A DNA stretch of 64,000 nucleotides from an uncultured bacterium (GCA_963718575.1 OY970358.1:514172-578171), one strand, 5' to 3'. Shown: positions 10,759 to 27,629, counted from the stretch's first letter. The notes: generated by a model from the sequence alone, not told the origin. Program-made: numbers and translations.

Positions 10759-11631
10759 ATGCAAAAACTTGGACAACATTTTTTAAAGAACACGGCGGTC
10801 TTGGAAAAGATCGTGGCCGCACTCGCACTTACGGACGGCGATCGCGTGATAGAGATCGGCCCCGGGCATGGGGAGCTCACGATCCCGCTCGTCGCAACGG
10901 CGAGAAAAAATAGCGGCGCGGTTGTCTGCATCGAAAAGGATCGCTCGCTCGTACCGGCACTCACCGAGCTGAGCGAAAAAGAAGGAGGGGGAATTCTCTC
11001 TATAATAGAGGGCGATGCACTTAAGTTGTTGCCGGAAGTCGCTGGGCGATTTGCCGCGACGGAGGCGTCTCATACAGCAGGTGCAGGGGATTTGTCACAC
11101 TATAAGATCGTTGGAAATATTCCCTACTACATAACCGGAAAACTGTTGCGTGTTATAAGCGAGCTTGAGCACAAACCCACGCGCACAGTGCTCCTTATTC
11201 AAAAAGAGGTTGCGGAACGGATCTGTGCCGCACCGCCCGACATGAACCGGCTCGCCGCGAGCGTGCAATTCTGGGCGGACGCCCGGATTGTGGCTCAGGT
11301 GCCACGCCACGATTTTTCTCCGCCGCCGGAAGTAGATTCTGCGGTGGTCGTGCTTGAGTCCAAGAGCACCGCGCAAAAATCTGAGGTACGCGGTGCGCAC
11401 ACTACTACATCCATCGACTCGGCGCTCTATTATTATAGAGCGGTGCGCGCCATTTTTGCCCAGCCACGCAAGACATTATTGAACAATCTTTCGGCATCGA
11501 CCGGCGGCACGATGACAAAGGGCATTATTATAGAGGAACTTAAAAAACTCGGCATCGATTCCGCCTCACGACCGCAAGATCTTGGCATCAAGCAGATCGT
11601 GGCGATCGCACAGGCGCATTTATGGGGATAA
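10759..11631 (+). CDS. rsmA: 16S rRNA (adenine1518/1519-N6)-dimethyltransferase
   Basis: LGQHFL...VIEIGPGHGELT SAM-binding motif of the KsgA/Dim1 family. 290 aa. Confidence 0.88.
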   Translation: MQKLGQHFLKNTAVLEKIVAALALTDGDRVIEIGPGHGELTIPLVATARKNSGAVVCIEKDRSLVPALTELSEKEGGGILSIIEGDALKLLPEVAGRFAATEASHTAGAGDLSHYKIVGNIPYYITGKLLRVISELEHKPTRTVLLIQKEVAERICAAPPDMNRLAASVQFWADARIVAQVPRHDFSPPPEVDSAVVVLESKSTAQKSEVRGAHTTTSIDSALYYYRAVRAIFAQPRKTLLNNLSASTGGTMTKGIIIEELKKLGIDSASRPQDLGIKQIVAIAQAHLWG

Positions 11632-11674
11632 CCCGAATAGCACGCAATTTCTTTTGGAGTTATAATTTGAATTA

Positions 11675-14041
11675 ATGATAGATGTCAAGAAGCTGATCAC
11701 AGGATTCCTTATTTTAGCTACCGCTGCGGTCTGCTCCGGACTCATCTTCGCTTTTACGAACTTTACGCCGAGCACGGCGGCGAACACTGCTAGCGCGGAC
11801 GGGATCACGATCAACGGTGTGGCACCCACAAATAGCGGGAGTGCTTTTATCCCAACCGAAGCTCAAGTCCAAGAGGTTGCCGCCGCGCTTGCGCCAGATC
11901 TCGCGTCCTCAACCATGCTCGTGAGCTCCACCGACCCAAACAATCTCACCGATCAGCTCGCGACGGATTTTGTGAACGGCGTCGTGGCCGCAAATCCGAA
12001 TGGTCCGACTGGCACCGACACAAACGGCAACCCAACCTTCAATCCTCCGGATGTAACAGCACTCGCTGCGAGTATCGCCGACACTACGAGCACCCAGGAT
12101 CTTCCGATTCCTGACTGGGATGTTGAAGCTGAATCCGTACCGATAGCCATTATTGCCACTTCCAGTGGTGCGGCATTGATGAACTATGGGAATGCCCTGA
12201 ACGACATTATGAACAGTCATCTTGATACCAATGCACAGGTGCAAAGTATCGTAGGCGACACGAGCGGCAGTGCCGACGCAAGCGATCTCTCTTTTGTTGG
12301 GGCACAAGTAGAAAGCGCGCTTCAGGATGCTTCCGCATTACAAGTTCCCACACCAGCAGTGGCTTATCAAAAAAGCTTGATAACCGACCTTGTGTATGAA
12401 AAGAATTTGATCCAACTTAACACCCTCGCGCAAACCGATCCAGTAAAAGCGTCTCTTCTTTTTCAACAAGAAGACAATAGGTTCTACGCGGTGCAAACAA
12501 ATTTTCTTGATCAGGCACAAAGCCTCACAAGCAAAACCCTTTCACTTCAAAAGCCTGCGCCGAATATCAGTGGTATGATATTATCATTCATTAATAACAC
12601 CTTTAGCATCTCTCAAGCCAATGCCCAGCTTGTAGTTGATGAACCCGTTTTGGATGCCATAACAATTCCCTATGATAACGCGAATCAAACACTCGATCTG
12701 ACTTCTCACGCCCAACAAGTAGCATCGAGCGCATCATTATTTTCACTCATCTCTTCCATTCATGTGCAAAACCTGGGACAAAGACTCGAAGCACTTCTTC
12801 AAAATACCTTATTACAGATCCTCAAGAATACGCTTGTCGCAATCATCCAACGCGAAGTGCTTACGTGGATACAAGGGAGCGGAGCTCCACGGTTCATCAC
12901 AAACTGGGGAACCCAATTAGTGAATGCTGCCCAAGCGAGTGCACTTAACAGTATTAATACTCTGTTTGATCAGAATGGTTGTACATTCCCTGCTTTTATA
13001 GGACAGGAAAAAATTACTTTAAATGCATTCTATAAGCCCGGAAGTAATGTCTGCGCAAACCAATTCGCGGCAGCGCTCGGAGCAAACAGCTTTCAGCAAT
13101 TCTATAACAATTTCGCAAATGGCGGATTCATCGCATTTGGAGCCAGCACCCTTCCAAGCGGCAATTCATATGGAAACCTTTTTTTCAACGCACAAACCGT
13201 TGCTTTTTCTTATAAAAATCAGCAAGGAGCCAGCCAGCTAAAAGCCCAATCTTCTAATGGACTTACCGGTAATCAGGTGTGTAGCGATGGGAGCGATCCA
13301 AATGGAACGCACGTTGAGTGTGAAAGCAACACCGCGAACGACTACGTACAACCTGCGGCTGGTTTTTGTTCCCAAGGCTACACTGCAGTCGTAGAGGATA
13401 ATAACGGTCTCTGTGCAAACGGCAATCAACCGCAAGTTACCACGCCTGCCGCAGCCACCGGATTTGTTCTCGGATCTGCCATTGATGCAACGCCAAAACA
13501 ACTTTCTGCGGCAAACGATATTGTCGGCGTCTTGAATGCGGTGCTTAATTCTCTCTTAACGGGCCTCGCAAGTACTGCGGTCAACGCGGCGGGGCAATTA
13601 GTAAATCAGGGGCTTACTTCTCTCAATAGCTCAAACATCACCGCTGGCGCAACCCCGCCTCCTACGAATCTACAAAATCTTGCTAGCACCACGAGTGGTA
13701 CCGCCGGAAATGTCGCCTCCATTCCGCTCGCGTGCAATCCATCATCGCAAACCATTCCTTCCACAACGGCCGGAACTGGTGGGTATACCCCCCAGGAAAC
13801 TTCTAGCACTTCTCCGTCTGCGGCCACCACAAATAGTTCCCCGACCTCAATTTCTGCGACCGGCGGAACCACTGATGTAGATGGTAATCCGCCAACCTAT
13901 TATTGGATTGATTCTAATGGAGTGAGCGGCACCGGGGCGTTCTTCAATGATACTTTCGCCGCTCCAGGGACCTACACCATAACTCTTACCGATTCAGCGA
14001 GCGACACTCCGGCGATCTGTACCGTGACCGTACAACAGTAA
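11675..14041 (+). CDS. large N/Q/T/A-rich secreted or membrane-anchored protein with C-terminal Ig/PKD-like domain (first gene of the T4SS-like cluster)
   Basis: N-terminal hydrophobic anchor or signal (ITGFLILATAAVCSGLIFAF), low-complexity polar body, and a C-terminal beta-sandwich-like segment (PPTYYWIDSNGVSGTGAFFNDTFAAPGTYTITLTDSASD). 788 aa. Confidence 0.55.
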   Translation: MIDVKKLITGFLILATAAVCSGLIFAFTNFTPSTAANTASADGITINGVAPTNSGSAFIPTEAQVQEVAAALAPDLASSTMLVSSTDPNNLTDQLATDFVNGVVAANPNGPTGTDTNGNPTFNPPDVTALAASIADTTSTQDLPIPDWDVEAESVPIAIIATSSGAALMNYGNALNDIMNSHLDTNAQVQSIVGDTSGSADASDLSFVGAQVESALQDASALQVPTPAVAYQKSLITDLVYEKNLIQLNTLAQTDPVKASLLFQQEDNRFYAVQTNFLDQAQSLTSKTLSLQKPAPNISGMILSFINNTFSISQANAQLVVDEPVLDAITIPYDNANQTLDLTSHAQQVASSASLFSLISSIHVQNLGQRLEALLQNTLLQILKNTLVAIIQREVLTWIQGSGAPRFITNWGTQLVNAAQASALNSINTLFDQNGCTFPAFIGQEKITLNAFYKPGSNVCANQFAAALGANSFQQFYNNFANGGFIAFGASTLPSGNSYGNLFFNAQTVAFSYKNQQGASQLKAQSSNGLTGNQVCSDGSDPNGTHVECESNTANDYVQPAAGFCSQGYTAVVEDNNGLCANGNQPQVTTPAAATGFVLGSAIDATPKQLSAANDIVGVLNAVLNSLLTGLASTAVNAAGQLVNQGLTSLNSSNITAGATPPPTNLQNLASTTSGTAGNVASIPLACNPSSQTIPSTTAGTGGYTPQETSSTSPSAATTNSSPTSISATGGTTDVDGNPPTYYWIDSNGVSGTGAFFNDTFAAPGTYTITLTDSASDTPAICTVTVQQ

Positions 14042-14055
14042 TAAGCCCGCGACTT

Positions 14056-16470
14056 ATGTCACCCAAAAACCATTACAAAAAAATATTCGTTATCACGGCA
14101 GCGCTGTTAATCCTTTTTGCGCCAGTCGTGATAACGGTGAACAGCGGGATGACGGCGGGACATGAAATCACGATTGGATTTGGTATTGCGAGAGCGCAGA
14201 CAACCCCAGCAACACCAAATCTATACGACTGCTCTACAAACCCTGTAACGTGCAGTATTTTTTTCCTATCGCTTACCGTTAATGGCTATATGGCGGTTCT
14301 TATTAGTGTTGGAGCATGGCTCGTACGAGTAGGTCTTCAATTCAACGATAATATCTTCAACTCTCCGGGGGTCCAAACAGGGTTTTCCGTTTCTCTTGCG
14401 ATCGCAAATCTTGGATTTGTGCTTGGTATTATTATTATCGCGATCGCCACCATTCTGAGAAACCAGACTTACGGAATAAAACAGCTCCTATGGAAATTGG
14501 TCGTTATGGCGATCCTTGTAAATTTTGGGCTCGTGATTACAGCACCAATCGTTGGTTTTGCGAGTAGTATGAGTAATTATTTTATCAACGCCACGAGTCC
14601 TAATTCGATGAGTATCGCCGGATATGAGGGATATGCAAATACTATGATGCAGGCTTTTGCGCCTCAGCTTTTTATACCAGGTGCGTCGCAGGTGGTCTCG
14701 GCAGGGGCGGCAGAGCAAGCAGCGTGTCTCCCTGCGCCAACTACCCCTGGAGGTGCTGCATTGTGTCTAAAAGCGGCACAAGACGCGACGAATGCCATCC
14801 AACAGGCAGCGACGGGACAGGGGCAGGCGAACGCGCTTACACAACAAGTTATGGCGATGTTCTTTGATTTGATTTTTTCCGCTCTTATTGCTTTTACCTT
14901 TCTTGCCTTGGCGGTTCTTCTTATCATCCGCTATCTTATGCTCGGAGGCCTTCTTATTATCCTCCCTCTTGCATGGCTCACATACGTATTCCCTAAATTC
15001 GATAATAGTTTTAGTAAATGGTGGAATACTTTTATTAGGTGGGTGTTTTTTCCGCCGCTCGCACTCTTCTTTATCTATCTCGCATTCATAGCCGCAACAA
15101 ATACAAATGGCGGCAATGCGATTGGAGTCGCAACAAATACAAATGCTACCCAAGTATATCTTACCCAAGCCACCGGGCTTCCTTCGGGCGCCGCTACGGG
15201 GGTTGAGGGCTCTCTCTACCAAGAGACTGGCCTTAGCGGAATCCTTCAGCAAGCTGCCGACGAAATTTTACTCATTGGTTTGACTATTATGGGACTTATG
15301 TTTGCAAGTTCTCTCGCAGGAAAGGCAGGGGCTGTGGCGGTTAATATTGGATCGACCGCAAGTAAGGCGGTGGCGGGGTACGCAGGAAGACAGACAAAGA
15401 AGGGCGCGCGCCTTGCTTACCAAAAAGCGGACAAGGCGGTTAAACTCCTTCCTGGTGACAAGGGAATAACTCAACGATTACAGGAGGGTGCTATTCCTGG
15501 TCTAAAATATGTTCCATTCGGGAAACGTGCCACATCACTCGTGGGAGCGGGGATATCAAGTATTGCCACAAACGAGGAGCTTGTAAAAGAATCCCAGAAA
15601 GATGTTCCAAAGACCTGGGATGAGGCGAAGAGTAAGCTCATCGGAGATATGAACACCCAGAAGCAATTTGCCCATATCACTCTTGGCGTTAAAGAGGGAA
15701 GGATCAAGCGGGATGACATGATCAATGGGACACGTGCCGATGAATTTTTGGCCAACGAAGATTTAGTGAAGCGTTATGGTCAAGAAAAATTAGTCTCGGA
15801 TGCAAACAAAATATGGATGGGCGACGCTGACACTCGCAATGCTGAGAAAGCCATTGCCGCGGCAAGAAAGAGCCCCGCAGGAAAAGCTGCTTATGAAGCG
15901 GCGTCGAAATCTGGCAAATCTTTCGATGAAGCTCTTGCTGCCCAAGATGCCGTTGCGGTAGTGAGGCCCACAAAAGATATTAAAGATGAGAATGGAGCTA
16001 TTGTCTTTAAAAAAGGCGTAGAAGCAAAAGCTGTGGATGTTAATGAGGCGGCGATGAAAGCATTCTTTAGTGGGATGGCAAAGACAGACGCTTCAAAGAT
16101 CGATACAAATTCTCTCTTTAGCCCTGCTGTTATGAATATAAAAAATCCTGAGGGGCTAGAGAAAGCACAAAGAGCAATTAAACAAATCGCTAAATATGCG
16201 CCACAAATTGTTCCTAACCTTATAAAGGGGATGAAGGGGCCGACCATACGCTCTTTTAGTAAAGAATATGATGACGCTCTGACCACTCTTATTGAACAGT
16301 ATAAGAATAACGGCGAAGCTAAAAAGGCAAAGGACTATGGGGAGATTCAGGAAATTTTCCAGAGAAGCATCAGGAAGAGTGTTTTTGAGACAGCAGACGT
16401 AGAGAAAGGTGATGGCGGAGGGGGCGATAAAGATGGCGGGAAAGGTGGGGGCGATAAAAAAGATCATTAA
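14056..16470 (+). CDS. VirB6/TrbL-like polytopic membrane protein with long hydrophilic Lys/Ala-rich C-terminal extension
   Basis: About 8 predicted TM helices in the first ~420 aa, with the hydrophobic and aromatic pattern typical of TrbL/VirB6 (inference from topology, no strict motif). About 380-aa charged C-terminal domain ending in a Gly/Asp/Lys-rich tail. Sits immediately upstream of PrgI-like and VirB4 genes, as in Gram-positive T4SS loci. Confidence 0.5.
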   Translation: MSPKNHYKKIFVITAALLILFAPVVITVNSGMTAGHEITIGFGIARAQTTPATPNLYDCSTNPVTCSIFFLSLTVNGYMAVLISVGAWLVRVGLQFNDNIFNSPGVQTGFSVSLAIANLGFVLGIIIIAIATILRNQTYGIKQLLWKLVVMAILVNFGLVITAPIVGFASSMSNYFINATSPNSMSIAGYEGYANTMMQAFAPQLFIPGASQVVSAGAAEQAACLPAPTTPGGAALCLKAAQDATNAIQQAATGQGQANALTQQVMAMFFDLIFSALIAFTFLALAVLLIIRYLMLGGLLIILPLAWLTYVFPKFDNSFSKWWNTFIRWVFFPPLALFFIYLAFIAATNTNGGNAIGVATNTNATQVYLTQATGLPSGAATGVEGSLYQETGLSGILQQAADEILLIGLTIMGLMFASSLAGKAGAVAVNIGSTASKAVAGYAGRQTKKGARLAYQKADKAVKLLPGDKGITQRLQEGAIPGLKYVPFGKRATSLVGAGISSIATNEELVKESQKDVPKTWDEAKSKLIGDMNTQKQFAHITLGVKEGRIKRDDMINGTRADEFLANEDLVKRYGQEKLVSDANKIWMGDADTRNAEKAIAAARKSPAGKAAYEAASKSGKSFDEALAAQDAVAVVRPTKDIKDENGAIVFKKGVEAKAVDVNEAAMKAFFSGMAKTDASKIDTNSLFSPAVMNIKNPEGLEKAQRAIKQIAKYAPQIVPNLIKGMKGPTIRSFSKEYDDALTTLIEQYKNNGEAKKAKDYGEIQEIFQRSIRKSVFETADVEKGDGGGGDKDGGKGGGDKKDH

Positions 16471-16473
16471 TCC

Positions 16474-17637
16474 ATGACTACTATTTCAGTCGATCAAGCA
16501 TTGGAACGATGGGATACACTCCCCAACCCGCTACGGGACGCGATTGTTTCTGACGCCAACTCTGAATTTATTTGGAAGACATGCGGAGATGAACACATCC
16601 CCGAAGAAAGAATCCCTGAAGTCGCGAGGGTAGTGGGATACGTTCTCCTTGGATTCCTACATCCCGAAGATTTAAACCAGGAGATTAAGGAGCGGCTAAA
16701 TGTAGACGCCAAAATCACGACCGCGATTGCGGATGCCTTGAATAAAAGAATTCTTGCGCCCATTCGTGCTGATCTCGATAGGGCTTATTCTCCGCTAAGT
16801 AAATTAGAGACCTCCGCGGCAATATCGGGGAATCAGAAAATTCTCCAAGATATTAGCGCGGGGACGCCGCAAAGCGTGAAGCCCGTACCCACCACGACGC
16901 CATCCAGCCCGTCGCTCTCGTTTAACAAGCCCGTGACCGTCGCCGATGTCGGTTGGTCAAAGCAACCTGCGGCACCAAAAGTGCCAACTCCTGCGCCCAC
17001 CGCGCCAACAATATCCGCAGAACCGGCGCCGATGATGCTTCACGAAGATACGGCCTTCAAGCCAGCGGAGAAGAATGCGAACTTTACCCTACCGCGACAG
17101 GGGACCATTGGCGAGATGAACCTGAATCGCGGGAGTGGCGTGCCGCAACCGGCACAGCGGCCGGCGGTCATCGAGTTCGGACCAAGATTTTCTTCCTCCC
17201 CCGTACCGCCAAAACCACCGACTCCCGGCGCGCCCGCCAAGCCTTACTCGGAATTCAAGCCTTCGCTCGCCGCCGTGCCGACGGCGAATTCCGGTCCGCG
17301 AAACGTGAGCCAGATCACAGCCGCGACCAGCCCGACGGCGAGCGTGAACACCACTCCAGCGATGTCCATCCCAGTGCCGATACCAAAGCCTCCGATGACC
17401 GCGCCAACACCCACCACATCTTCATCCATACCGATCCCGCCTCCGCCACAGATTCCAAGAACTCCGCAGGTGTGGCACATCCCCGCGCAGACACAGGCTC
17501 CCGCGCCGATGCCAACCACGCCATCACCACTAGCATCAGCCAAACCGCAAACGCCGTCGATACCGACACCGCCAAAGCCACCGACTCCCGGCGCGGCAAC
17601 AGCCCCAGTCGCGCCGATCCAAAAAGATTTTCTCTAG
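16474..17637 (+). CDS. proline/threonine-rich protein with globular N-terminal domain (T4SS-cluster member)
   Basis: About 110-aa N-terminal domain followed by about 270 aa of P/T/A-rich sequence, with an internal repeat PPKPPTPGA(P/A) occurring twice. No TM segment. Confidence 0.5.
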   Translation: MTTISVDQALERWDTLPNPLRDAIVSDANSEFIWKTCGDEHIPEERIPEVARVVGYVLLGFLHPEDLNQEIKERLNVDAKITTAIADALNKRILAPIRADLDRAYSPLSKLETSAAISGNQKILQDISAGTPQSVKPVPTTTPSSPSLSFNKPVTVADVGWSKQPAAPKVPTPAPTAPTISAEPAPMMLHEDTAFKPAEKNANFTLPRQGTIGEMNLNRGSGVPQPAQRPAVIEFGPRFSSSPVPPKPPTPGAPAKPYSEFKPSLAAVPTANSGPRNVSQITAATSPTASVNTTPAMSIPVPIPKPPMTAPTPTTSSSIPIPPPPQIPRTPQVWHIPAQTQAPAPMPTTPSPLASAKPQTPSIPTPPKPPTPGAATAPVAPIQKDFL

Positions 17638-17685
17638 CGTTAGCGCCGGTGGTAAATCCCGCGCGCGGGATTTACAATAGAATCT

Positions 17686-18201
17686 ATGCAGTATCAGGTT
17701 CCACAATTCATCGAAACCGAGGATAAGGTCGTCGGACCGTTCTCAATTAAACAATTCGCGTACGTTGGCGCCGCGGCGGTTATTAGCGGCATCTGCTATT
17801 TCATCTTACAGACGTGGTTGTTTGCCATCGTGGCGCTCATCCTCGTCGGCGGCGCGCTCGCGCTCTCGTTCGTAAAAGTAAACGGCCGGCCGCTTATGAA
17901 GGTGGGGCTCGCCGCGTTCAACTATTATTGGAAGCCCCAGATGTATGTTTGGAAATCCGAACACCCGGCGCCCGCGCAACATGCCGCGCCTGCGGTGGTG
18001 CGTGAACTGCCGCCCGTTACTGCGGTCGCATCCGGAAGTGCGCTCCATAAAAGCTGGGAAAACCTGCAGACCGGGACGCCGCCGGCTGGCAAGGTGCAAT
18101 CCGCACGGCAATTTGTTGAAAAGAAGATGGCCGAGCGCTATCAGATATTCCAACGGGAGAGCGGGGAGCGGGAGGCGGCGCGCCGCGTGGATTATCGCTA
18201 G
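17686..18201 (+). CDS. PrgI-family (VirB3-like) T4SS membrane protein
   Basis: The N-terminus (YQVPQFIETEDKVVGPFSIKQFAYVGAAAVISGICYFIL) matches the PrgI-family pattern (Y.VP...K..GPF..RQ then a TM hairpin). Two TM helices. Lies directly upstream of VirB4, as for PrgI/PrgJ and VirB3/VirB4. Confidence 0.55.
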   Translation: MQYQVPQFIETEDKVVGPFSIKQFAYVGAAAVISGICYFILQTWLFAIVALILVGGALALSFVKVNGRPLMKVGLAAFNYYWKPQMYVWKSEHPAPAQHAAPAVVRELPPVTAVASGSALHKSWENLQTGTPPAGKVQSARQFVEKKMAERYQIFQRESGEREAARRVDYR

Positions 18202-18215
18202 GATTTGTCCACAAT

Positions 18216-18923
18216 TTGTGCGAAAATAAGAGCATGGCAGCCCCTTCAAAGCAGGATGCGGGAAATTCCCTGGATCTTGTCGATATTAAAGAGATTAAAC
18301 AAAGCACCGTCATTGTTAAGGACGGCAGTCTTCGCCAGGTCATCATGGTGGGCGGCGTCAACTTTTCGTTGAAGTCGGAGATGGAGCAGAATATCATCAC
18401 GCAGGGATACCAGACTTTCTTGAACGGGATCGATTTCCCATTGCAGATCCTTATCCACTCGCGCAAGGTGAATATCGATAAATATATCGAGACGCTTACG
18501 CAAAGAAAGGACGTCGAGCAGTCGCCGATCCTGCAAAATCAGATCGATGAGTACAGTAAGTTCGTCCAAGGATTCGTGGAGAAGAACGCGATTATGGAAA
18601 AGGTGTTTTTGGTGGTCGTCTCGTTCTATTCCGCGACGGCGCTCCCCGGCGCGCAAAGCGTTTCCGGGGTGATGTCGTTCTTTGGCGGAAAGAAAAAACC
18701 CCCGGCGGCGGAAGTGGCACAGCGCGCCGAAGAATCGGAAAAGATGTTCAGCGAGAACCTTGCGCAGCTCGGCCAGCGCACGGCGCAAGTGACGAGCGGA
18801 CTTTTGAATATCGGCCTTGAAGCTACGGTATTGGACGACGAACAGCTCGTTGAGCTCTTCTATAACTTCTACAACCCGCAGACGATCGAACGGAAAACCG
18901 CGCCCGCGCCGCGGGAATCATAA
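18216..18923 (+). CDS. VirB4-family ATPase, N-terminal domain fragment (separate ORF, different frame from the ATPase core)
   Basis: The N-terminal region (VDIKEIKQSTVIVKDGSLRQVIMVGGVNFSLKSEMEQNI...) resembles the VirB4/TraC N-terminal domain. Its stop lies 8 nt before the next ORF, whose frame is open upstream. Combined length 235+578 aa is about that of full-length VirB4. Confidence 0.55.
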   Translation: MCENKSMAAPSKQDAGNSLDLVDIKEIKQSTVIVKDGSLRQVIMVGGVNFSLKSEMEQNIITQGYQTFLNGIDFPLQILIHSRKVNIDKYIETLTQRKDVEQSPILQNQIDEYSKFVQGFVEKNAIMEKVFLVVVSFYSATALPGAQSVSGVMSFFGGKKKPPAAEVAQRAEESEKMFSENLAQLGQRTAQVTSGLLNIGLEATVLDDEQLVELFYNFYNPQTIERKTAPAPRES

Positions 18924-18931
18924 TCATATCC

Positions 18932-20668
18932 ATGCCCGAGCAACCGCAACAAAATAATTTTGACGACGTAAAGAAGATCATCGCGCCTGCGGGAGCGCAA
19001 GTGTTCCCGAATTATTTGAAGATCGGGGATAAGCTCGCAAAGACGTTCTTCGTCTTTTCCTATCCGCGCTATCTTTCCACGGGCTGGTTCGAGCCGCTCA
19101 TCAACCTGCCGAATCTTTTTGATGTATCCATTTTTATCAGCCCGATCGATACCGGCAGCGCACTCAAGAACCTGCGCAAGAAAGCAGGGCAGCTCGAATC
19201 GCAGATGAACGAAGAACAGGAAAAGGGCTTGGTGAGAAATCCGGTGTTAGAGACGGCCATCAACGACGTAGAAAATCTGCGTGATTCGTTGCAGCAGTCG
19301 GAGGAAAAGCTTTTCAACACCGGCGTCTACATCACGATCTACGCGGACACGCAGGACGAGCTCGCGCGGATCGAGAGCAAGCTCGTCACGATGATGGAAG
19401 CGAAGCTGATCTATATTAAGCCTGCGCTCTTTGAACAGCTTGAAGGATTGTCTTCCATCTTGCCGATCAACGAAGACAAACTGCAGATTTATTCGCCGAT
19501 GAACACGAGTCCGATCTCATCGTTCTTCCCGTTCGTCTCTGAAGACCTTTCCTCCAACCAGGGGATCATGTACGGCATTAATCTTCACAATAGCAATCTT
19601 GTGATCTTCGATCGATTCTCGCTTGAGAACGCGAACGAAGTGGTCTTTGCAAAATCCGGCGCCGGCAAGTCGTACACCACAAAGCTCGAGATTCTGCGCT
19701 CGCTCATGGCGGGTATCGATATGGTGATCGTGATCGATCCGGAGAACGAATATGGCCGCCTTGCGGAGACATTCGGCGGGAGCATGTTCAATATTTCGCT
19801 GTCGTCACATGAACATATCAATCCATTCGATATCCCGCCCGTGCCGGAAGGCGAAACGCCGTCGGACGTTTTGCGCTCGCACATCGTGAATCTCGCGAGT
19901 CTGCTCAAGCTGATGCTTGGAAAACTCTCGCCGGAAGAGGATGCTCTGCTCGACCGCGCGATCACGGAGACGTACGCCTCGCGCGAGATCGTCGCCGAGA
20001 CCGACTTTGCCGGCAAGGAGCCGCCATTGCTCGGCGACCTTGAAACTGTCCTGCGCAATCTGGAAGGCGGCAAAGACATCGCGGAGAAGCTTTATAAATA
20101 CACCAAAGGCAGCTTCGCGGGATTCTTAAACCAATCCACCAATATCGACGTCTCGAACCGCCTGATCATCTTTTCCATACGCGATCTCGAAGAAGAGCTC
20201 CGCCCGCTCGGCATGTTCGTCGTACTCAACTTCATCTGGAACCTCATCCGCGCAAAACTCGCAAAGCGCCTGCTCTTCATTGACGAGGCGTGGATCATGA
20301 TGAAGAACGACGATAGCGCGACGTTCCTCTTCGGCCTCGTCAAGCGCGCGCGCAAATATTATCTTGGGGTCACAACAATCACTCAAGACGTGGAAGATTT
20401 CTTGCGATCGCCGTACGGCCGTCCGATCGTCACAAACTCTTCTTTGCAATTACTCTTAAAGCAAGCGCCTGCGACGATCGACATCGTTGCAAAAGCATTC
20501 GACCTTACCGAAGCGGAAAAGAATTTCCTTCTCGGCGCGGAGGTCGGCACCGGCATCTTCTTCGCCGGCAAACGCCACGTTGCCATCCAGATCGTGCCGT
20601 CGTATTACGAAGATCAGATCATCACTACGAATCCAGAGCAGTTGCTGGAGGAAAAGAATCAAGTGTAA
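18932..20668 (+). CDS. virB4: VirB4/TrbE/PrgJ-family type IV secretion ATPase (C-terminal ATPase core)
   Basis: Walker A FAKSGAGKSY, Walker B LLFIDEAWIMM (the DEAW motif typical of VirB4), and the C-terminal region. 578 aa. Confidence 0.8.
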   Translation: MPEQPQQNNFDDVKKIIAPAGAQVFPNYLKIGDKLAKTFFVFSYPRYLSTGWFEPLINLPNLFDVSIFISPIDTGSALKNLRKKAGQLESQMNEEQEKGLVRNPVLETAINDVENLRDSLQQSEEKLFNTGVYITIYADTQDELARIESKLVTMMEAKLIYIKPALFEQLEGLSSILPINEDKLQIYSPMNTSPISSFFPFVSEDLSSNQGIMYGINLHNSNLVIFDRFSLENANEVVFAKSGAGKSYTTKLEILRSLMAGIDMVIVIDPENEYGRLAETFGGSMFNISLSSHEHINPFDIPPVPEGETPSDVLRSHIVNLASLLKLMLGKLSPEEDALLDRAITETYASREIVAETDFAGKEPPLLGDLETVLRNLEGGKDIAEKLYKYTKGSFAGFLNQSTNIDVSNRLIIFSIRDLEEELRPLGMFVVLNFIWNLIRAKLAKRLLFIDEAWIMMKNDDSATFLFGLVKRARKYYLGVTTITQDVEDFLRSPYGRPIVTNSSLQLLLKQAPATIDIVAKAFDLTEAEKNFLLGAEVGTGIFFAGKRHVAIQIVPSYYEDQIITTNPEQLLEEKNQV

Positions 20669-20677
20669 TTTTCTTTC

Positions 20678-21562
20678 ATGGAAGAAGATAAAATAGACTT
20701 TTTCGATGCTGGAACGATAATGTTTTTTATTATGGCGCTGATCAGTGACGGCGCGTTTTTAGGTTTATTCGGCTTGCTTATTCCGAGAATAGGACTAGTA
20801 GTCGCAATGTTCGTCCTCGGCGCTCACTATTTCATCGGCATTATTGTCCTTTTTTATTTCTGGGGAAAGACTAAGGGCTTCGCGACAAAGGCAATTCTTG
20901 TGGCTGCATGGTTCCTGCCGTTGCCACTACTCACTATAGGATTATTCTTGGCGATTGTGCTTTCTACAAAACTCGGCCAAGAATTTATTGACTTGGCAGA
21001 AAAGGTGGCGATAAACGACCTAGAGGCGCTACCTCTCGCTGCCGCAGTTGTCGCAGCGCCTGAGACAGGCGGCGCGTCACTTGTAGCTGCCGGAGCTCTT
21101 GAGGGTGGTACAGTCGCTGCGGAAGGGGCGGTCATAGCAACTGAAGGTGCTGCCGTCGCAACAGAGGGAGCGGTGGCCGCAGGAGAGGCAGCAGCTGCAG
21201 CAACAGAAGGGGTGACAACCACCACTACCGAACTTGGAACAGAAGGAGTTGGGGCCGGCGCTGATTTAGGCGAGAACGCTGCCAGCGTCTTTAGTAACCC
21301 CTTGGATAATCCAGTTGGGGAGGCTGGGAAAGAGCTGGATATTCCATCGGAAGAGCAATTTCATGAAGGGGAAGGATTTGAAAACGAGACGCAAGAAGAA
21401 CCCGAGGGAGAAAGAGATGAAATGGATCATAATACCAGAAGGATAGTAAAAGGGGTGGAACGAGCCCAGAAGGTTGTTGATATTATTGATAATGTACGAC
21501 AACCTCAAGGGAATGACGAAGATGAGGATGAGCAGGCTGAAGATCTCGCGGACGCGGCGTAA
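20678..21562 (+). CDS. integral membrane protein (4 TM) with Ala/Gly/Thr-rich linker and acidic C-terminal tail (T4SS-cluster member)
   Basis: Four hydrophobic helices in the first ~120 aa, a low-complexity A/G/E/T segment, then a highly acidic C-terminus (DEDEDEQAEDLADAA). No family assigned. Confidence 0.45.
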   Translation: MEEDKIDFFDAGTIMFFIMALISDGAFLGLFGLLIPRIGLVVAMFVLGAHYFIGIIVLFYFWGKTKGFATKAILVAAWFLPLPLLTIGLFLAIVLSTKLGQEFIDLAEKVAINDLEALPLAAAVVAAPETGGASLVAAGALEGGTVAAEGAVIATEGAAVATEGAVAAGEAAAAATEGVTTTTTELGTEGVGAGADLGENAASVFSNPLDNPVGEAGKELDIPSEEQFHEGEGFENETQEEPEGERDEMDHNTRRIVKGVERAQKVVDIIDNVRQPQGNDEDEDEQAEDLADAA

Positions 21563-21605
21563 CACGCCATATTTCTGCCGTAATTTGCTATACTAAAGCA
21601 AAGAG

Positions 21606-22337
21606 ATGCTATCGCGAACCGTTTTTAAAAAAGTGGCGTTTCTATGCCTTATCGTCTTCGTTGCGTCGGGTGTTTTCCTTTCTTCAAAACCCGTGGAGGC
21701 GCATGCGCAAACCGCCAATGCATCATCACCAACGTTTCTTGTCACGTGGGGAACGACCGGGAGCTATATTCCATCATTTTATTTAGGGAAAGCACTGCCG
21801 ACGTATGGTTCGCAGATCACCGCATCACTTGAACTCATCTCGGCACAAGGAAAAGTGCTCGACCTCAGCGGGCAGACGATCTACTGGTATGTCGATGACA
21901 CGCTGGTGGGCGGTGGTGTTGGCGTGCAACACGTGACGTTTCCACCCGTCGGCGACGCGCCAAATTCCGTGGACCTTCGCGTGACGATTCCCAATTATAA
22001 CGGGGCATATCTTGTCCACGAGATAAGCATTCCGATGGTGCTCCCCAAAACGGTGATATACGCGCCGTATCCGAACGGACAATTTTCACAAAATCCCATC
22101 ACAGTGACCGGGCTTCCATATTTCTTTAACACCACAAGCACCTCGAATCTTTCCTACGCCTGGTCGGTGAATGGCCAAAACGGATCGAATACTGAAAATC
22201 CACAGCAAGCAGAGATCACGCTCCCGGAGGGCACACAGTCGGGGACAGGTCTCGCGATATCGCTCAATGTTACCAATCCGCAGGACTCTACGGTTGGCAC
22301 CGCATCCGTCAATTTAACCTACGAGAGCCAGCTATGA
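21606..22337 (+). CDS. secreted protein with signal peptide (T4SS-cluster member)
   Basis: N-terminal signal peptide (KVAFLCLIVFVASGVFLSSKPVEAHA) and a beta-rich mature region. Stop overlaps the next start (ATGA). Confidence 0.5.
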   Translation: MLSRTVFKKVAFLCLIVFVASGVFLSSKPVEAHAQTANASSPTFLVTWGTTGSYIPSFYLGKALPTYGSQITASLELISAQGKVLDLSGQTIYWYVDDTLVGGGVGVQHVTFPPVGDAPNSVDLRVTIPNYNGAYLVHEISIPMVLPKTVIYAPYPNGQFSQNPITVTGLPYFFNTTSTSNLSYAWSVNGQNGSNTENPQQAEITLPEGTQSGTGLAISLNVTNPQDSTVGTASVNLTYESQL

Positions 22338-22837
22338 TCGACATGAATTATTTATCTATTCCTGTTGCGCATGCGGTCTCGATCAGTATGGGAGTCCCCG
22401 GAACAAATCCGAACACGAGCAGCACACCGCCGGGCGCATTCGTCGCAAATGTTTACCAATTTTCGTTGGCGATCGCCGGAGTGCTCGCATTCGGCGTTGT
22501 GGTGTATGGCGGCGTGAAATATATGACGTCCGCGGGAAATCCATCAGGGCAAGGCGACGCAAAGGAATGGATCGAGGCAGCGCTCCTGGGGTTATTATTA
22601 TTAGCGGGAGCATATTTCATTCTGACCGTAGTCAATCCCCAGTTAACAAACCTCATACTGCCGCCGATCCCGGCGGCAAGCACACAAAGCTCCGCGCCCG
22701 GAGGATCAACTCCCACCCCTGCAGCTCCGCCGGTCACTTGTAATGGAACCACGTGTTCACCGGGACAAAGCTGTCTCCCCAGCACTGCTTTTTCAAATAC
22801 TTTCCAATGTTGTATAGGCACCATATCATGTAATTAA
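22334..22837 (+). CDS. VirB2/TrbC-like pilin candidate with Cys-rich C-terminal extension
   Basis: Signal-like N-terminus, then two hydrophobic helices separated by a short Gly-rich hydrophilic loop (FSLAIAGVLAFGVVVYGGVKYM - TSAGNPSGQGDAKEW - IEAALLGLLLLAGAYFILTVVNP). This is the hallmark topology of T4SS pilins. C-terminal segment is Cys-rich. Translationally coupled to the upstream gene. Confidence 0.45.
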   Translation: MIDMNYLSIPVAHAVSISMGVPGTNPNTSSTPPGAFVANVYQFSLAIAGVLAFGVVVYGGVKYMTSAGNPSGQGDAKEWIEAALLGLLLLAGAYFILTVVNPQLTNLILPPIPAASTQSSAPGGSTPTPAAPPVTCNGTTCSPGQSCLPSTAFSNTFQCCIGTISCN

Positions 22838-22841
22838 TCCT

Positions 22842-24182
22842 ATGAAACGCTATATTTATATCATCATCGGCATCATCGTCGCGGCGGCTATCGCGATATT
22901 GATCCTTTTCCTTTTAAAGGGGCGCTTAGGTAATTCAACTCCCGGCATAACGGGCAACACGACGAGCACCGGCTCGCTTCCGGTCGCGGGCACGCAGGGG
23001 AGTAACGGCACGGGGACGGGAAGCAGTACGACGCCGCTCGGCCTGTCGCCGATAGCCGGCAGCAGCACGCCGGCCGCGAGCAGCCAGATGTCTGTGCAAA
23101 ATTTTGGCGTGCTTTCAAGCGATCCCGTCCTTGATTATTTTATTGATACAAAGAACAACGTCACCGCCATCGAGCCGACCGGCGCCATCTTCACAATTTC
23201 AAATGGACAATCGGCCGTCATTAACTCCTCGACGATCAACGCGATCATCTCCGCCAGCTTTTCCTATGACGGCAAGATGACTTTGGTAAGTTATGGCACG
23301 GCCACCGATCCACAGGCGGCGATATTCAATGTTTCGACAGGCGTATGGACCGGGCTCCCTCAGGGGATGCTCTCGCCCCAGTGGTCGCCGGCAAATAACT
23401 ATCAGATCGCATATCTTGCGGCAACGGGGAACGGCAAACTCGCGCTCGCGACCATCAATGCGGCGAATCTTAAAGCGGGTCCGGTCACGCTGCTTTCGCT
23501 CAACGCGAACGACGTTGCACTCCAGTGGCCCACACAAAGCGAGTTTATTCTTTCGGATAAACCCACCGCGGAAAATGCGGGCTCGGTGTGGGTATTTAAT
23601 TCCGCCACAAACACACTGACTCCTCTTATCTATGAAGTTCCGGGCGCGGAAGGAATCTGGAGCCATAATGCGTCGATCCCGTACGGGTTGACCTTCTTTG
23701 CCAACCCCTCAGGACAAGGCGACACCCTGCAATTGCAGGCCATAACAGGAAATTTGCCGACTGAGGCGCTCAACTTCCTGACGTTGCCTTCCAAGTGCGC
23801 GTTTAACACGGAACTGATGCCGATATCTGCGCCAAGCTCGCCAACAACCGGAACTCCGACATCCACAGCATCCTCAGCTACAGCAAAGAAGGCGGTGCCC
23901 GTGATAGCCGCGGCGACATCCACCCCGTACCTCGCGCTCTACTGCGGCGTCCCGCGCAGCTCAAGCGGATTCTCTTCCGCGCAACTGCCGGACGCCTACA
24001 ACACGATGGCGCTCTTTACTTCGGATGATATCTATAAAATAAATACCGCGACGGGCGCGGATCAGGTGTTATGGAGCGATGCCACGGAGAATATGGATGC
24101 CTCCGATATGAAATTCTTCAACAACGCACTCTTCTTTATCAACCGTTATGACAGTAAACTATACGGCTTAACGTTTAATTAA
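22842..24182 (+). CDS. membrane-anchored protein with beta-propeller-like extracytoplasmic domain (T4SS-cluster member)
   Basis: N-terminal TM anchor (YIYIIIGIIVAAAIAILILFLL), an S/T/G linker, then a ~350-aa beta-rich domain with WSP and TolB-like repeats (inference). Confidence 0.45.
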   Translation: MKRYIYIIIGIIVAAAIAILILFLLKGRLGNSTPGITGNTTSTGSLPVAGTQGSNGTGTGSSTTPLGLSPIAGSSTPAASSQMSVQNFGVLSSDPVLDYFIDTKNNVTAIEPTGAIFTISNGQSAVINSSTINAIISASFSYDGKMTLVSYGTATDPQAAIFNVSTGVWTGLPQGMLSPQWSPANNYQIAYLAATGNGKLALATINAANLKAGPVTLLSLNANDVALQWPTQSEFILSDKPTAENAGSVWVFNSATNTLTPLIYEVPGAEGIWSHNASIPYGLTFFANPSGQGDTLQLQAITGNLPTEALNFLTLPSKCAFNTELMPISAPSSPTTGTPTSTASSATAKKAVPVIAAATSTPYLALYCGVPRSSSGFSSAQLPDAYNTMALFTSDDIYKINTATGADQVLWSDATENMDASDMKFFNNALFFINRYDSKLYGLTFN

Positions 24183-24247: not shown

Positions 24248-24685
24248 TTATTCCAATATCGGCTTGATAATGACGTAGCGTTCTTTTCCTTCGCCGGCGC
24301 TTTCTGTCTTCACTTCAGGATGCACCGCGAGCTCCATGTGTACCAGCCGGCGCTCGTAGGAGTTCATTGCGGGGAGCGCAACCTCCGCCTTTGTGGTTGC
24401 CGCCTTTTTTGCCGCAGCGCGCGCGAGTTCCGCGATCAAACGCTCGCGGTCGTGGCGGTAATTATTGACGTCGAGAAATATCGCTTCGGCCTGGTTCTTT
24501 TTTGCGACCATCTGGAGAATGTGATTCACCGCATCCACGATCGCGGGGAGGTTCTCCTTCACCATCTCGGCGTCTTCATAAATAAAAACCGAGCCCCGGC
24601 GTTCATCTATCTTTATCTCTAAGTGATAATCCTTAAATCCGATGAGGTCCAGCGTCTTTTTAATGAATGATTCCCAGTTGTCCAT
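24248..24685 (-). CDS. jag: Jag/KhpB-like RNA-binding protein (R3H domain)
   Basis: C-terminal R3H motif (SYERRLVHMELAVHPEVKTESAGEGKERYVIIKP). Sits downstream of yidC in the conserved rpmH-rnpA-yidC-jag arrangement. Confidence 0.8.
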   Translation of the reverse strand: MDNWESFIKKTLDLIGFKDYHLEIKIDERRGSVFIYEDAEMVKENLPAIVDAVNHILQMVAKKNQAEAIFLDVNNYRHDRERLIAELARAAAKKAATTKAEVALPAMNSYERRLVHMELAVHPEVKTESAGEGKERYVIIKPILE

Positions 24686-24769
24686 AGGTTCCCGTAACTA
24701 TTCCATATTCTGCCGACAAAATCAAGCATCGTCTGCCTGCCGTTGTTTTATATATGAAATATGAATTGC

Positions 24770-25483
24770 CTATGCCCCGTACTTTTTCTGGAGATGCTTG
24801 TTGACGAAGTACTGTTGGATGGCGGAGAAGAGGGAGCTCATCAACCAATAGAGACCGAGTGCGGCGGGAAAGTTATAAAACACGAGGATTGTGATGATTG
24901 GACCGACAAACACCATTTGTCGGGCGATTTTTTCGGCTTGCGATAGCGCGCCGGTGTTTGTGGGGGACCGATAGATGGTAAGTTTTGCCTGAAGAAATTG
25001 CGCGGCGGCGGCGGCGAGGATGAGGATGAAGTTCGGATTCGCAAGATTGATGAATCCTAAAAATATCGTGTTGATGTGCCGTGGAGCTGGGACAAAGGAA
25101 TATAATCCCGCGATCGCTCCCGTGCCGATACCGGAGCGGATCACCCAATAGAACGTGAGGAGGATCGGAAGCTGGATGATGAGCAATAACATTCCGGAAA
25201 ACGGATTCACGCCGTGTTCTTTATATAACTCCATCAGCGCCTTCGCCTGCGCATCGCGATCCTCTTTATGTTTTATCTGAATATCTTTTATCTTCGGCTG
25301 GATGCGTTGCATGAGCATCTGCTGCTTCGCGCCGGTATGGAAGAATGGATAGAGGATGAGGCGGATGAAAAGCGTGACGAGGATGATCGCGACGCCGAGA
25401 TCGTGATACCCGATTGTATTGTAAAAAAAGATAAGAAGGTTGAGGACCGGCCGGTAGAATATCTGCTGGTAGAGATAAACCAT
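24770..25483 (-). CDS. yidC: membrane protein insertase YidC (short, Gram-positive type)
   Basis: Five-TM core with the conserved region (QQ.L.Q.IQPKIK...) and a KK-rich C-terminal tail. 237 aa. Confidence 0.9.
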   Translation of the reverse strand: MVYLYQQIFYRPVLNLLIFFYNTIGYHDLGVAIILVTLFIRLILYPFFHTGAKQQMLMQRIQPKIKDIQIKHKEDRDAQAKALMELYKEHGVNPFSGMLLLIIQLPILLTFYWVIRSGIGTGAIAGLYSFVPAPRHINTIFLGFINLANPNFILILAAAAAQFLQAKLTIYRSPTNTGALSQAEKIARQMVFVGPIITILVFYNFPAALGLYWLMSSLFSAIQQYFVNKHLQKKYGA

Positions 25484-25494
25484 ATTTTTTATTT

Positions 25495-25812
25495 TTATAA
25501 TTGGGTTTTGGTCAGCGCCTTTACAACCTCCTCCTTAAATTGCTTCTTTGTGATGCGATTTGCGCCCGGCAAAACTATCATAAGGATATCACTTCCGGGC
25601 GTCGCGTGGGCAACAAGCACCGCTTGCGCCTGCCGCTTCCAAAAATTCCTTTTTACTGCGGTTTTATGAACGGATACTCCCGCCACGATCCCGATCCTTG
25701 CACGATCGCCGGCATTCTTCTTTGTTTTAAGAAGGAAAAACGCGGTTGGGGTTGTTTTATAGCCTCGGGCGCGGAACTGGTCCGAGGGAAGGCGCATTGT
25801 TTTAATGGCCAT
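25495..25812 (-). CDS. rnpA: ribonuclease P protein component
   Basis: Basic ~105-aa protein with the RNR-like motif region (RIGIVAGVSVHKTAVKRN..KR), between rpmH and yidC. Confidence 0.85.
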   Translation of the reverse strand: MAIKTMRLPSDQFRARGYKTTPTAFFLLKTKKNAGDRARIGIVAGVSVHKTAVKRNFWKRQAQAVLVAHATPGSDILMIVLPGANRITKKQFKEEVVKALTKTQL

Positions 25813-25830
25813 AATGGCTTTAAAGGCCGT

Positions 25831-25965
25831 TTAAACGGCAAGCTTCTTCCTTCCTTTCGCCCTGCGGCGGGAAAGAACGCGGCGGCCGGTAGGGCTGGCC
25901 TGACGCACTAAAAAACCATGGGTGGTTTTTCGCTTCTTTTTCTTCGGATTGTATGTGAACGACAT
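25831..25965 (-). CDS. rpmH: 50S ribosomal protein L34
   Basis: The last 44 aa of track ORF 25831-26124 read [44 protein letters not shown], a canonical L34. The start is the internal Met (cat on plus at 25963-25965). Confidence 0.88.
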
Positions 25966-26039
25966 TCCCTCGATAATATCATAGGTTTTTGAAAAAGCAA
26001 AGCCCCGCACCGCCAAGCCGCAGATGTTTTTTATTCTCT

Positions 26040-26125
26040 CCCCACGTAATCCACAGGAAGATAACTTTCTTTGTTTATGCGCTCTTTGACTTGTGCGAAG
26101 GAAGAGATAATAATGAATCCACAAA
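26040..26125. promoter_or_regulatory. DnaA-box-like motifs (taatccaca, gaatccaca) in the rpmH-dnaA spacer; dnaA promoter and possible oriC part
   Basis: Seen in sequence: 8/9 matches to TTATCCACA at about 26047 and about 26114, in the divergent spacer upstream of dnaA. Confidence 0.35.
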
Positions 26126-26143
26126 CTTAATTATTTTTTAATC

Positions 26144-27496
26144 ATGGACCTTGAACAGATGTGGCAGTCGACGTTAGGGGAGATGGAGGTTCAACTGACG
26201 AAGGCGCACTTTGCGACGTGGCTAAAAAATAGTCGGCCGATCAATAAAAAGGATGATACGCTCTTTGTCGCGCTCCCGAGCAACTTTGCAAAAACATGGG
26301 TGGAGGAAAAATATCAAAAAAACATCATCGGCATCGTCCGAAATATGGATACGTCGGTCAAAAAGATCGAATTCGTGGTAGGAAGCAAACAGATTGCGTT
26401 CAATGCTCCCGCGCCTGAGGTAAAGAACGTCCAAAGTGGCGGCGCCGAACTTGATTTTGCAAAAACCGATCCGGAAACAGGATTGAACCCCAAATATACG
26501 CTGGCTTCGTTCGTCGTCGGCCCCTCAAACGAACTTGCGTTCGCCGCCGCCGCTGCGATCACTGAAGCACCCGGCAAAAAATACAATCCTTTTTTCATCT
26601 ACGGCGGCGTCGGACTCGGAAAGACCCATCTTATCCAGGCGATCGGCAACGAACTCAATGCGAAGTTTAAAGGAAAGATAAAAACGAAATATGTTTCCTC
26701 CGAACAATTCACGCGCGACATCGTGTGGGGGCTTCGCAACGACCGGATTGAAAGCGTAAAAAAGAAATATCGCGATGTCGACGTGTTGATTATCGACGAT
26801 ATCCAATTCATCGGCGGAAAAGAAAAGACGGAAGAAGAATTTTTCCACACTTTCAACGCGCTCTATGAGAATGATAAGCAGATCATCATCTCGTCCGACC
26901 GGCCGCCGCAATCCCTCCCGACGCTCGAAGAGCGCCTTCGTTCGCGTTTTGAGGGCGGGCTTATCGCGGACGTGTCCTATCCGGAATTCGAGATGCGCGT
27001 GGCGATCATCCGCAGCAAACTCCAGGAGATGAACCACCCATTGAGCGATCAGGTGACCGACCTCATCGCGAAGCGCCTCCGGAAGAACATCCGCGAGTTG
27101 GAAGGGGTGCTTAAGAAGATTATATTCTATGAGGAGCGAAAACAGACGGAGATCACCGTGAAGGCGGCCGAGGAGATCATAGAAAAGGCCACCCAGAACC
27201 TCTCTAAGCGCGTCACCGATGCCCAGATCCTGAAGTCTGTGGCTGAGTTCTTTAATATCGCCGTCGAGGACCTTGTGAGCCATAATCGCCGTAAGGAAGT
27301 GGTGGAGCCGCGCCAGATCGCAATCTATCTTCTTCGGGATATCTCGGAGCTTTCCTATCCGTATATTGGTGAGAAGCTGGGGAGAGACCACACCACCGCC
27401 ATCCACTCCTACGAAAAAATCAACAGTGAGATCAACAGAAACCCCGCACTTAATCAAAAGATATTAACCATTAAGGATATGATTTATAAGAGTTAG
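26144..27496 (+). CDS. dnaA: chromosomal replication initiator DnaA
   Basis: AAA+ Walker A GGVGLGKTHL, sensor motifs, and the C-terminal DNA-binding domain IV (…IAIYLLRDISELSYPYIGEKLGRDHTT). Confidence 0.95.
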   Translation: MDLEQMWQSTLGEMEVQLTKAHFATWLKNSRPINKKDDTLFVALPSNFAKTWVEEKYQKNIIGIVRNMDTSVKKIEFVVGSKQIAFNAPAPEVKNVQSGGAELDFAKTDPETGLNPKYTLASFVVGPSNELAFAAAAAITEAPGKKYNPFFIYGGVGLGKTHLIQAIGNELNAKFKGKIKTKYVSSEQFTRDIVWGLRNDRIESVKKKYRDVDVLIIDDIQFIGGKEKTEEEFFHTFNALYENDKQIIISSDRPPQSLPTLEERLRSRFEGGLIADVSYPEFEMRVAIIRSKLQEMNHPLSDQVTDLIAKRLRKNIRELEGVLKKIIFYEERKQTEITVKAAEEIIEKATQNLSKRVTDAQILKSVAEFFNIAVEDLVSHNRRKEVVEPRQIAIYLLRDISELSYPYIGEKLGRDHTTAIHSYEKINSEINRNPALNQKILTIKDMIYKS

Positions 27497-27629
27497 TCCT
27501 ATGGTTGTCCACATAGGAAGTGCGTGGTAGGGGTTATGGATATTGAATAAAAAAACTTTATCCCCAAAAAAGCACCTCACTAATAACAATAATCATAAAA
27601 AGTATTTAAATATAATTTATAATTAAGAG
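27497..27629. promoter_or_regulatory. candidate oriC segment: DnaA boxes (ttgtccaca, ttatcccca) plus AT-rich DNA-unwinding-like stretch between dnaA and dnaN
   Basis: Seen in sequence: ttgtccaca at about 27505 (inside the inverted repeat cctatg...catagg), ttatcccca at about 27558, then about 50 nt with more than 80% AT. dnaA-dnaN spacers commonly hold oriC. Confidence 0.5.

Follow-up and report, generated by a model that had tools for sequence, protein, structure and literature searches.

A probable Patescibacteria-clade type IV secretion system near the replication origin of an uncultured Paceibacteria genome

A run of genes that encodes the core of a type IV secretion system (T4SS) but neither a relaxase nor a type IV coupling protein (T4CP) raises the question of whether it is a conjugative element or a machine of the bacterium itself. 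Such a run lies at positions 11675-24182 of a 64,000-nucleotide (nt) stretch of DNA from an uncultured bacterium (GCA_963718575.1 OY970358.1:514172-578171), which is referred to here as the window and on which all coordinates are based. The initial annotation of the window had interpreted the cluster as a Gram-positive-type T4SS, with the order VirB6-like protein, PrgI and VirB4 and a pilin, serving secretion or host attachment in a candidate phyla radiation (CPR) bacterium. According to the results below, the locus is, with a probability of about 0.85, a vertically inherited, origin-proximal T4SS of the Patescibacteria clade, from the monoderm MPF_FATA machinery, in a Paceibacteria (Parcubacteria) genome.

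The Gram-positive-type identity was supported by above-threshold matches of VirB4, PrgI and the pilin (g6, g4 and g9; the ten genes are numbered g1 to g10 in Table 1). The product of g6 scored 404.9 bits against the NCBIfam model NF045971 conju_CD1110 (cut-off 325; profile positions 186-733 of 752), and the MPF_FATA-type CD1110 family was its best model. It also matched the VirB4 structure 4ag5 in the PDB (E = 7.6e-40) and P-loop_TraG in Pfam (E = 1.5e-23), and it showed weak similarity to CedB, an archaeal importer of DNA (E = 4.7e-8, NCBIfam). The Walker A motif GAGKSY was located at residues 243-248 (nt 19658-19675) and the Walker B motif DEAW at residues 451-454 (nt 20282-20293), in agreement with the VirB4-family ATPase predicted from these motifs. 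The 80 nearest loci, with VirB4 identities of 55-96%, all came from Patescibacteria metagenome-assembled genomes (Paceibacterota, Minisyncoccia, Parcubacteria and Liptonbacteria), as the proposal of a CPR-type bacterium had implied. Furthermore, the small protein g4, with transmembrane (TM) segments at residues 23-42 and 43-67, reached 37.1 bits against PF12666 PrgI in Pfam (gathering score 27, E = 4.8e-9), which confirmed the suspected family, and 72 loci had a protein of this type immediately upstream of VirB4.

The product of g9 scored 31.8 bits against the Pfam family PF18895 T4SS_pilin (gathering score 26.6). It possesses a leader ending in AHA|V, two hydrophobic helices with a GNPSGQG loop between them, and six cysteines in the tail. 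The description as a two-helix, pilin-like protein with a Cys-rich tail was therefore correct, but not the statement that it had no assignable family. In an alignment of 30 orthologues, the core was conserved and the tail variable: about a third of the orthologues lacked the tail, and many of the remainder had a Cys-rich one. The leader before AHA|V (22334-22375) had 14 residues in the window and in the two closest relatives; in the other orthologues, the leader was about 25-35 residues long and its n-region was Lys-rich.

The match of the g6 product to the VirB4 models did not begin until about position 186-250. The open reading frame (ORF) of g5, which precedes it in a different frame, opens with TTG at 18216, has its first ATG at 18234, and ends in a TAA 8 nt before the ATG of g6. 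Its product matched NF045975 VirB4_plasma (E = 1.1e-10, profile positions 98-215), TIGR00929 (E = 3.2e-5, positions 19-192), and NF041427 TrsD (E = 1e-5), and PF26593 TraC-like was precomputed on an identical product. Judging from these matches, g5 is a TrsD homologue and corresponds to the N-terminal domain of VirB4 in detached form. The initial annotation had recognized the ATPase but overlooked this division. Comparison of the g5 family with pCF10 PrgJ by hhalign returned nothing, a search that was insensitive as the template was a single sequence. The two parts were separate ORFs in 78 of 78 related loci and never fused. Among 1.84 billion representative proteins, 1,808 relatives of g5 were found, and the best 150 of them were nearly all stand-alone proteins, mostly of about 200-350 amino acids (aa). 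The fused form was rare; a 797-aa relative (P0249) carries both parts and shares 63% identity with g6 in the C-terminal one. From this distribution, the split is read as ancient and functional. A frameshift or pseudogene was rejected as its cause, because all 78 loci are split, the frames vary, and the start codons lie mostly 0-20 nt past the stop.

The cluster was syntenic in dozens of genomes, and a chance arrangement was therefore ruled out. In the comparison of related genomes suggested by the initial annotation, the cluster and its flanking genes were conserved, and all loci of sufficient length had the layout uvrD-ksgA-cluster-yidC-dnaA-dnaN. This synteny spanned about 50 species-level Patescibacteria genomes, including a distant group whose DnaA was about 40% identical. 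The median identities in the close group were 86.5% for VirB4, 73% for DnaA, 63% for TrsD, and 52% each for PrgI and the pilin, followed by g8 (42%), g10 (39%), g3 (37%), g2 (33%), and g1 (29%). VirB4 was more conserved than DnaA in all 50 loci compared (medians in the distant group, 56% versus 41%), which indicates strong purifying selection on VirB4. A constraint of this size is unusually strong for a secretion ATPase.

The assignment of g2 was the weakest in the core. The protein had been described as polytopic with 8 TM helices and a charged extension of about 380 aa; 7-8 hydrophobic segments were found, with the TM core at about residues 60-440, a charged tail of about 365 aa (64 K/R, 52 D/E), and a folded, all-helical, Lys-rich C-terminal domain at about 510-780. 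It had no Pfam match, the TrbL/VirB6 models included, and remained below threshold against NF046089 (16.3 bits, cut-off 120); against the CD3337/EF1877 mobilome membrane family it reached only E = 3.3e-3. Three of 28 orthologues matched TrbL or TrbL_4 and four matched NF046089, all below threshold. The g2 family gave an hhalign probability of 1.9% against pCF10 PrgH, where the single-sequence template made the search insensitive, and a non-significant 1.1% (E = 0.05) against a 40-sequence TrwI family profile, with the alignment limited to the region of a P..W motif (g2 266-333 with TrwI 143-210). In addition, profile searches of the PDB yielded nothing useful for g2, g5, and g8.

Structure predictions were run on database homologues of the cluster proteins. 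The AlphaFold2 model of the g2 family, built from a 100-sequence alignment, had a mean predicted local distance difference test (pLDDT) of 80, and its only high-probability Foldseek match was TrwI/VirB6 of R388 (probability 0.90, TMt 0.44, E about 1). The C-terminal 270 residues were all-helical with a pLDDT of about 96 and had no informative structural neighbour. Because the last TM segment leads into a strongly basic stretch, this domain is probably cytoplasmic, a topology read from charge alone; it was apparently missing in some orthologues of 511-529 aa. The 7-8 TM segments and the position just upstream of VirB3, together with the fold match, make VirB6-like the best reading of g2, with moderate confidence and with putative family membership. 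The polytopic nature and the position assigned to the VirB6-like protein held, but a match to VirB6/TrbL models above threshold was not obtained.

The other five genes (g1, g3, g7, g8, and g10) encode envelope proteins without an assigned family that are specific to this Paceibacteria lineage and uncharacterised in PMC12102498 and PMC10633639. Their descriptions in the initial annotation agreed with what was found. In g1, which is rich in N, T, and S, an N-terminal TM anchor is followed by a confident helical domain (about 90-290), a Cys-rich beta region, and the C-terminal PKD domain; a conserved motif, LLQILKN...WIQGSGAPRFITNW, occupies residues 379-411, and no VirB5-like helical fold that would place the protein with VirB5/TraC was found. 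In the protein g3, about 110 aa at the N-terminus form a globular domain, followed by a long Pro-rich repeat region, with 18% proline and no TM segment; its DNA contains internal Pro-rich repeats, a positional orthologue was present in 40 loci, and neither Pfam nor NCBIfam gave a match. Likewise, no family was found for g7 in the Pfam and NCBIfam searches. It has 3-4 N-terminal TM segments and a net charge of -36, and a fast-evolving positional orthologue with the same TM and acidic-tail architecture occurred in nearly all close loci. The two beta-rich proteins were g8 and g10. The N-terminus of g8 is signal-like, and 15 of 40 orthologues matched the Ig-like BiPBP_C domain (best E = 3.9e-7), with no sequence match in the PDB. 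An identity of g8 with VirB8, which has an NTF2-like domain, was rejected in view of these Ig-like matches and of an hhalign probability of 0.4% against PrgL. The orthologue profile of g10 matched a TolB propeller blade (E = 2.5e-5); scattered PD40, DPPIV_N, and Kelch matches were seen among the orthologues, and the cysteine pair C319 and C368 was invariant.

No VirB1-like hydrolase (SLT, CHAP, or NlpC domain) was detected in g1-g10. In a distant Paceibacteria relative (L056, VirB4 56% identical) with the same cluster layout and unrelated accessory ORFs, an SLT lytic-transglycosylase protein (14943-15929 of that locus; 22 bits, gathering score 21.3) ends the cluster in place of g10. In the window, a 206-aa LysM-domain protein (8209-8829, minus strand) lies between a ComM-like gene and uvrD, about 3 kb from the cluster on its upstream side; this T4SS, which has no VirB1-like gene, has no other cell-wall-binding candidate nearby.

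The Patescibacteria-clade T4SSs have been surveyed in 3,035 genomes (PMC12102498, Quinonero-Coronel et al. 2025). Their VirB4 proteins form a monophyletic clade nested in MPF_FATA, with TrsD as the most frequent partner, along with PrgI/VirB3, VirB6, and VirB2-like pilins (PF18895). Relaxases were found in 103 of the 3,035 genomes, T4CP genes were seldom near virB4, and the Paceibacteria system lies close to dnaA, dnaN, ksgA, rnpA, and rpmH. The present locus resembled these systems in several respects: VirB4 is probably nearest to MPF_FATA, the TrsD homologue g5 adjoins it, a PrgI/VirB3 homologue (g4), a VirB6-like protein, and a PF18895 pilin (g9) are near, relaxase and T4CP are absent from the cluster, and the same origin-proximal genes stand beside it on the chromosome. 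It differed from the published systems in having no peptidase or lysozyme (VirB1-like) gene in the cluster. In the saccharibacterium Southlakia epibionticum, the homologous cluster SEML1_0006-0019, which is without coupling protein and relaxase, was essential for epibiotic growth (PMC10633639, Wang et al. 2023); it contains an array of six pilin genes, compared with one here. These systems have also been listed in a 2025 review, together with a class of 'extended VirB6' proteins (PMC12857230). Thus, the novelty suggested at first for the system did not hold, as it is already described in these three papers; the system is real, strongly conserved, and already known.

Compared with the wider MPF_FATA group, the order VirB6-like, VirB3-like, VirB4 corresponds to pCF10 prgH-prgI-prgJ, VirB4 exceeds the equivalog cut-off of the CTn2 CD1110 family, and a TrsD-like protein encoded separately, upstream of VirB4, is also a feature of the pGO1 subclass (TrsD-TrsE of pGO1/pIP501). 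Unlike those systems, the locus is chromosomal and vertically inherited, lacks a relaxase, the T4CP PcfC, VirB1 (PrgK), VirB8-like (PrgL), and the LPXTG adhesin PrgB, and possesses a pilin of VirB2 type, absent from Gram-positive systems; no profile similarity to pCF10 PrgH, PrgL, or the PrgJ N-terminus was detected. With the MPF_T systems of R388 and Agrobacterium, it shares the two-helix pilin of VirB2 type, and the TM core of g2 appears similar to TrwI in its fold. In contrast to them, no VirB7, VirB9, and VirB10 outer-membrane core, no VirB11, and no VirB5 was detected, and g2 carries a C-terminal extension that TrwI does not have, as in the 'extended VirB6' proteins.

An ordinary or decaying integrative conjugative element (ICE), with its relaxase and coupling protein lost or located outside the window, could be suggested by a VirB4 family that was typed on the ICE CTn2 and by the gene order of pCF10. 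However, when the window's 60 longest ORFs (at least 150 aa) were scanned with Pfam, neither a relaxase nor a coupling protein nor an integrase was detected near the cluster, and the other scanned ORFs were housekeeping genes only, so the earlier observation of a locus without relaxase or coupling protein held for the cluster and for the whole 64 kb. Moreover, there were no flanking direct or att-like repeats around the cluster, no GC anomaly across it, and no variable insertion site, the same oriC-adjacent position being occupied in genomes with DnaA down to 40% identity; relaxases are also rare in the published genomes. Because the position is fixed, integrase, repeats, and GC anomaly are missing, and VirB4 is more constrained than DnaA, the cluster is a vertically inherited core system and no mobile element; that it is no conjugative element had been argued initially, and the ICE hypothesis was rejected as effectively refuted. 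In a model patterned on solved T4SSs, VirB4 hexamers would be docked to the membrane beneath a VirB6 channel by VirB3 together with the detached N-terminal domain, and VirB4 would pull pilin from the membrane and polymerise a VirB2-type pilus. The variable Cys-rich pilin tails and the ectodomains of g1, g8, and g10 may point outward, across the wall, and touch the host cell, and the machine may move macromolecules between epibiont and host in either direction without DNA conjugation. Beyond a VirB4-powered membrane channel and a VirB2-type pilus aimed at the host cell, we infer this mechanism from analogy.

The export of effectors or proteins would be the leading candidate for its use, at somewhat less than even odds. 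Import, in which pilus and channel would take up host RNA, DNA, or nucleotides as in ComB/Ced DNA import, and the extended VirB6, through its cytoplasmic C-terminal domain, would deal with the incoming substrate instead of a coupling protein, is possible though rather doubtful. It is consistent with the missing T4CP and relaxase, with the similarity of VirB4 to CedB, which is, however, restricted to the generic ATPase core, and with the folded Lys-rich VirB6 domain and the positive stretch after the last TM segment, although the charge-derived topology and the shorter orthologues apparently without the domain speak against it. Nucleotide acquisition through the T4SS was raised in a 2024 perspective that called its role 'completely unknown' (PMC11665869), and a 2026 preprint on a cultivated Microgenomatia strain reported tubular structures toward the host, possible T4SS pili, and host RNA acquisition (10.64898/2026.06.21.733656), but a direct link between a T4SS and uptake is available for no Patescibacterium. 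A more specific form appears unlikely, in which the Paceibacteria version, working without relaxase and T4CP, would be a conduit for importing nucleic acids from the host cytoplasm. Its pilus, with variable Cys-rich tails and supporting ectodomains, would reach or penetrate the host, and the folded Lys-rich VirB6 domain and the split VirB4 would replace the coupling protein in handling the substrate in the cytoplasm. If the import reading were true, it would explain the greater conservation of VirB4 than DnaA in organisms unable to make nucleotides. An organelle reduced to adhesion, in which a VirB4-powered pilus and displayed adhesins attach the epibiont to its host and translocate nothing, would account for the above-threshold pilin, its variable Cys-rich tails, the PKD, Ig-like, and beta-propeller ectodomains, and the lack of a nearby T4CP. 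It is improbable, since a VirB6-like channel protein and VirB3 are kept, a separate PilB ATPase already supplies an adhesion and motility pilus, and the extreme conservation of VirB4 suggests more than adhesion. Some points weigh against the preferred reading as a Patescibacteria-clade T4SS. Its function is extrapolated to Paceibacteria from Saccharimonadia and Microgenomatia, no VirB8-, VirB1-, or VirB5-like component was found in the cluster, and the absence of a coupling protein refers to the 64-kb window, with VirD4-like genes present elsewhere in most Patescibacteria genomes (PMC12102498). The secretion or host-attachment function proposed initially agrees with the literature and is beyond what sequence alone can demonstrate.

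The features of the locus and its neighbours are listed in Table 1. All ten ORFs of the cluster were recovered where they had been annotated, consecutive and co-directional, with spacers from g1 to g10 of 14, 3, 48, 32, 8, 9, 43, -4, and 4 nt, the negative value marking the 4 nt shared by g8 and the pilin gene. An alternative genetic code was unnecessary, as code 11 gives long ORFs and TGA serves as a stop. In a scan of the locus, terminators were at chance level and promoters uninformative. No obvious GGAGG-type Shine-Dalgarno sequence was seen in the 25 nt before the start codon of any of the ten genes (11650-22842).

Table 1. Coordinates of the cluster genes and of the flanking genes in the window
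Feature	Coordinates	Strand	Description
ksgA/rsmA	10759..11631	+	Upstream cluster boundary; RrnaAD, E = 1e-43; upstream neighbour in related loci
g1	11675..14041	+	788-aa membrane-anchored surface protein, C-terminal PKD domain
g2	14056..16470	+	804-aa extended VirB6-like polytopic membrane protein
g3	16474..17637	+	387-aa Pro-rich repeat protein
g4	17686..18201	+	171-aa PrgI/VirB3-like protein, two TM segments
g5	18234..18923	+	229-aa TrsD-like protein, detached VirB4 N-terminal domain
g6	18932..20668	+	578-aa VirB4 ATPase, middle and C-terminal domains
g7	20678..21562	+	294-aa membrane protein, Ala/Gly/Glu-rich acidic tail
g8	21606..22337	+	243-aa secreted or anchored protein, tandem Ig-like beta-sandwich domains
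g9	22334..22837	+	167-aa VirB2-like T4SS pilin
g10	22842..24182	+	446-aa protein, N-terminal anchor, predicted TolB-like beta-propeller
Origin-of-replication gene block	24248..28742		Pfam matches, ORF translations; downstream neighbours conserved
jag-like R3H protein	24248-24685	-	
yidC	24770-25483	-	
rnpA	25495-25812	-	
rpmH	~25831-25965	-	
dnaA	26144-27496	+	
dnaN	27630-28742	+	

Several further observations were made in the window. Past dnaN, a class A penicillin-binding protein is apparently encoded in three overlapping minus-strand ORFs (28749-30892), comprising the transglycosylase (29792-30892) and the N-terminal (29230-29868) and C-terminal (28749-29504) parts of the transpeptidase; frameshifts, a pseudogene, or assembly errors are possible. 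Downstream of the T4SS, at a distance of about 9 kb, is the PilB/T2SSE-type ATPase (33413-35089, plus strand, E = 8.6e-117); its presence suggests that this origin-proximal region also encodes, apart from the T4SS, a type IV pilus or competence machine. Near the end of the window, a minus-strand ORF (63027-63998) encoding a serine-recombinase zinc-ribbon domain overlaps the 3' end of a tmRNA gene (62781-63097, plus strand), and this site may be the edge of an element that is integrated at the tmRNA gene and continues past the window. In other public assemblies of the locus with an identical g1 product (L081 and L082), VirB4, the VirB6-like protein, and neighbouring housekeeping genes were in short fragments, probably because of indel errors; the copy in the window is intact.

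The locus raises no new question, and it leaves the substrate and direction of transport no more testable than before. What it adds is incremental: the universal split of VirB4, the conservation of VirB4 beyond that of DnaA, fold or family hints for g1, g8, and g10, and the folded VirB6 extension. Residual interest lies in the five conserved accessory envelope proteins, which, like this extension, are unannotated in published surveys. No T4SSs other than those of Patescibacteria are known to be indispensable for the growth of their own bacterium, and the present locus is a clean Paceibacteria example, confirming that in an uncultivated class the machine belongs to the core of the genome, is linked to the origin, and is strongly constrained.

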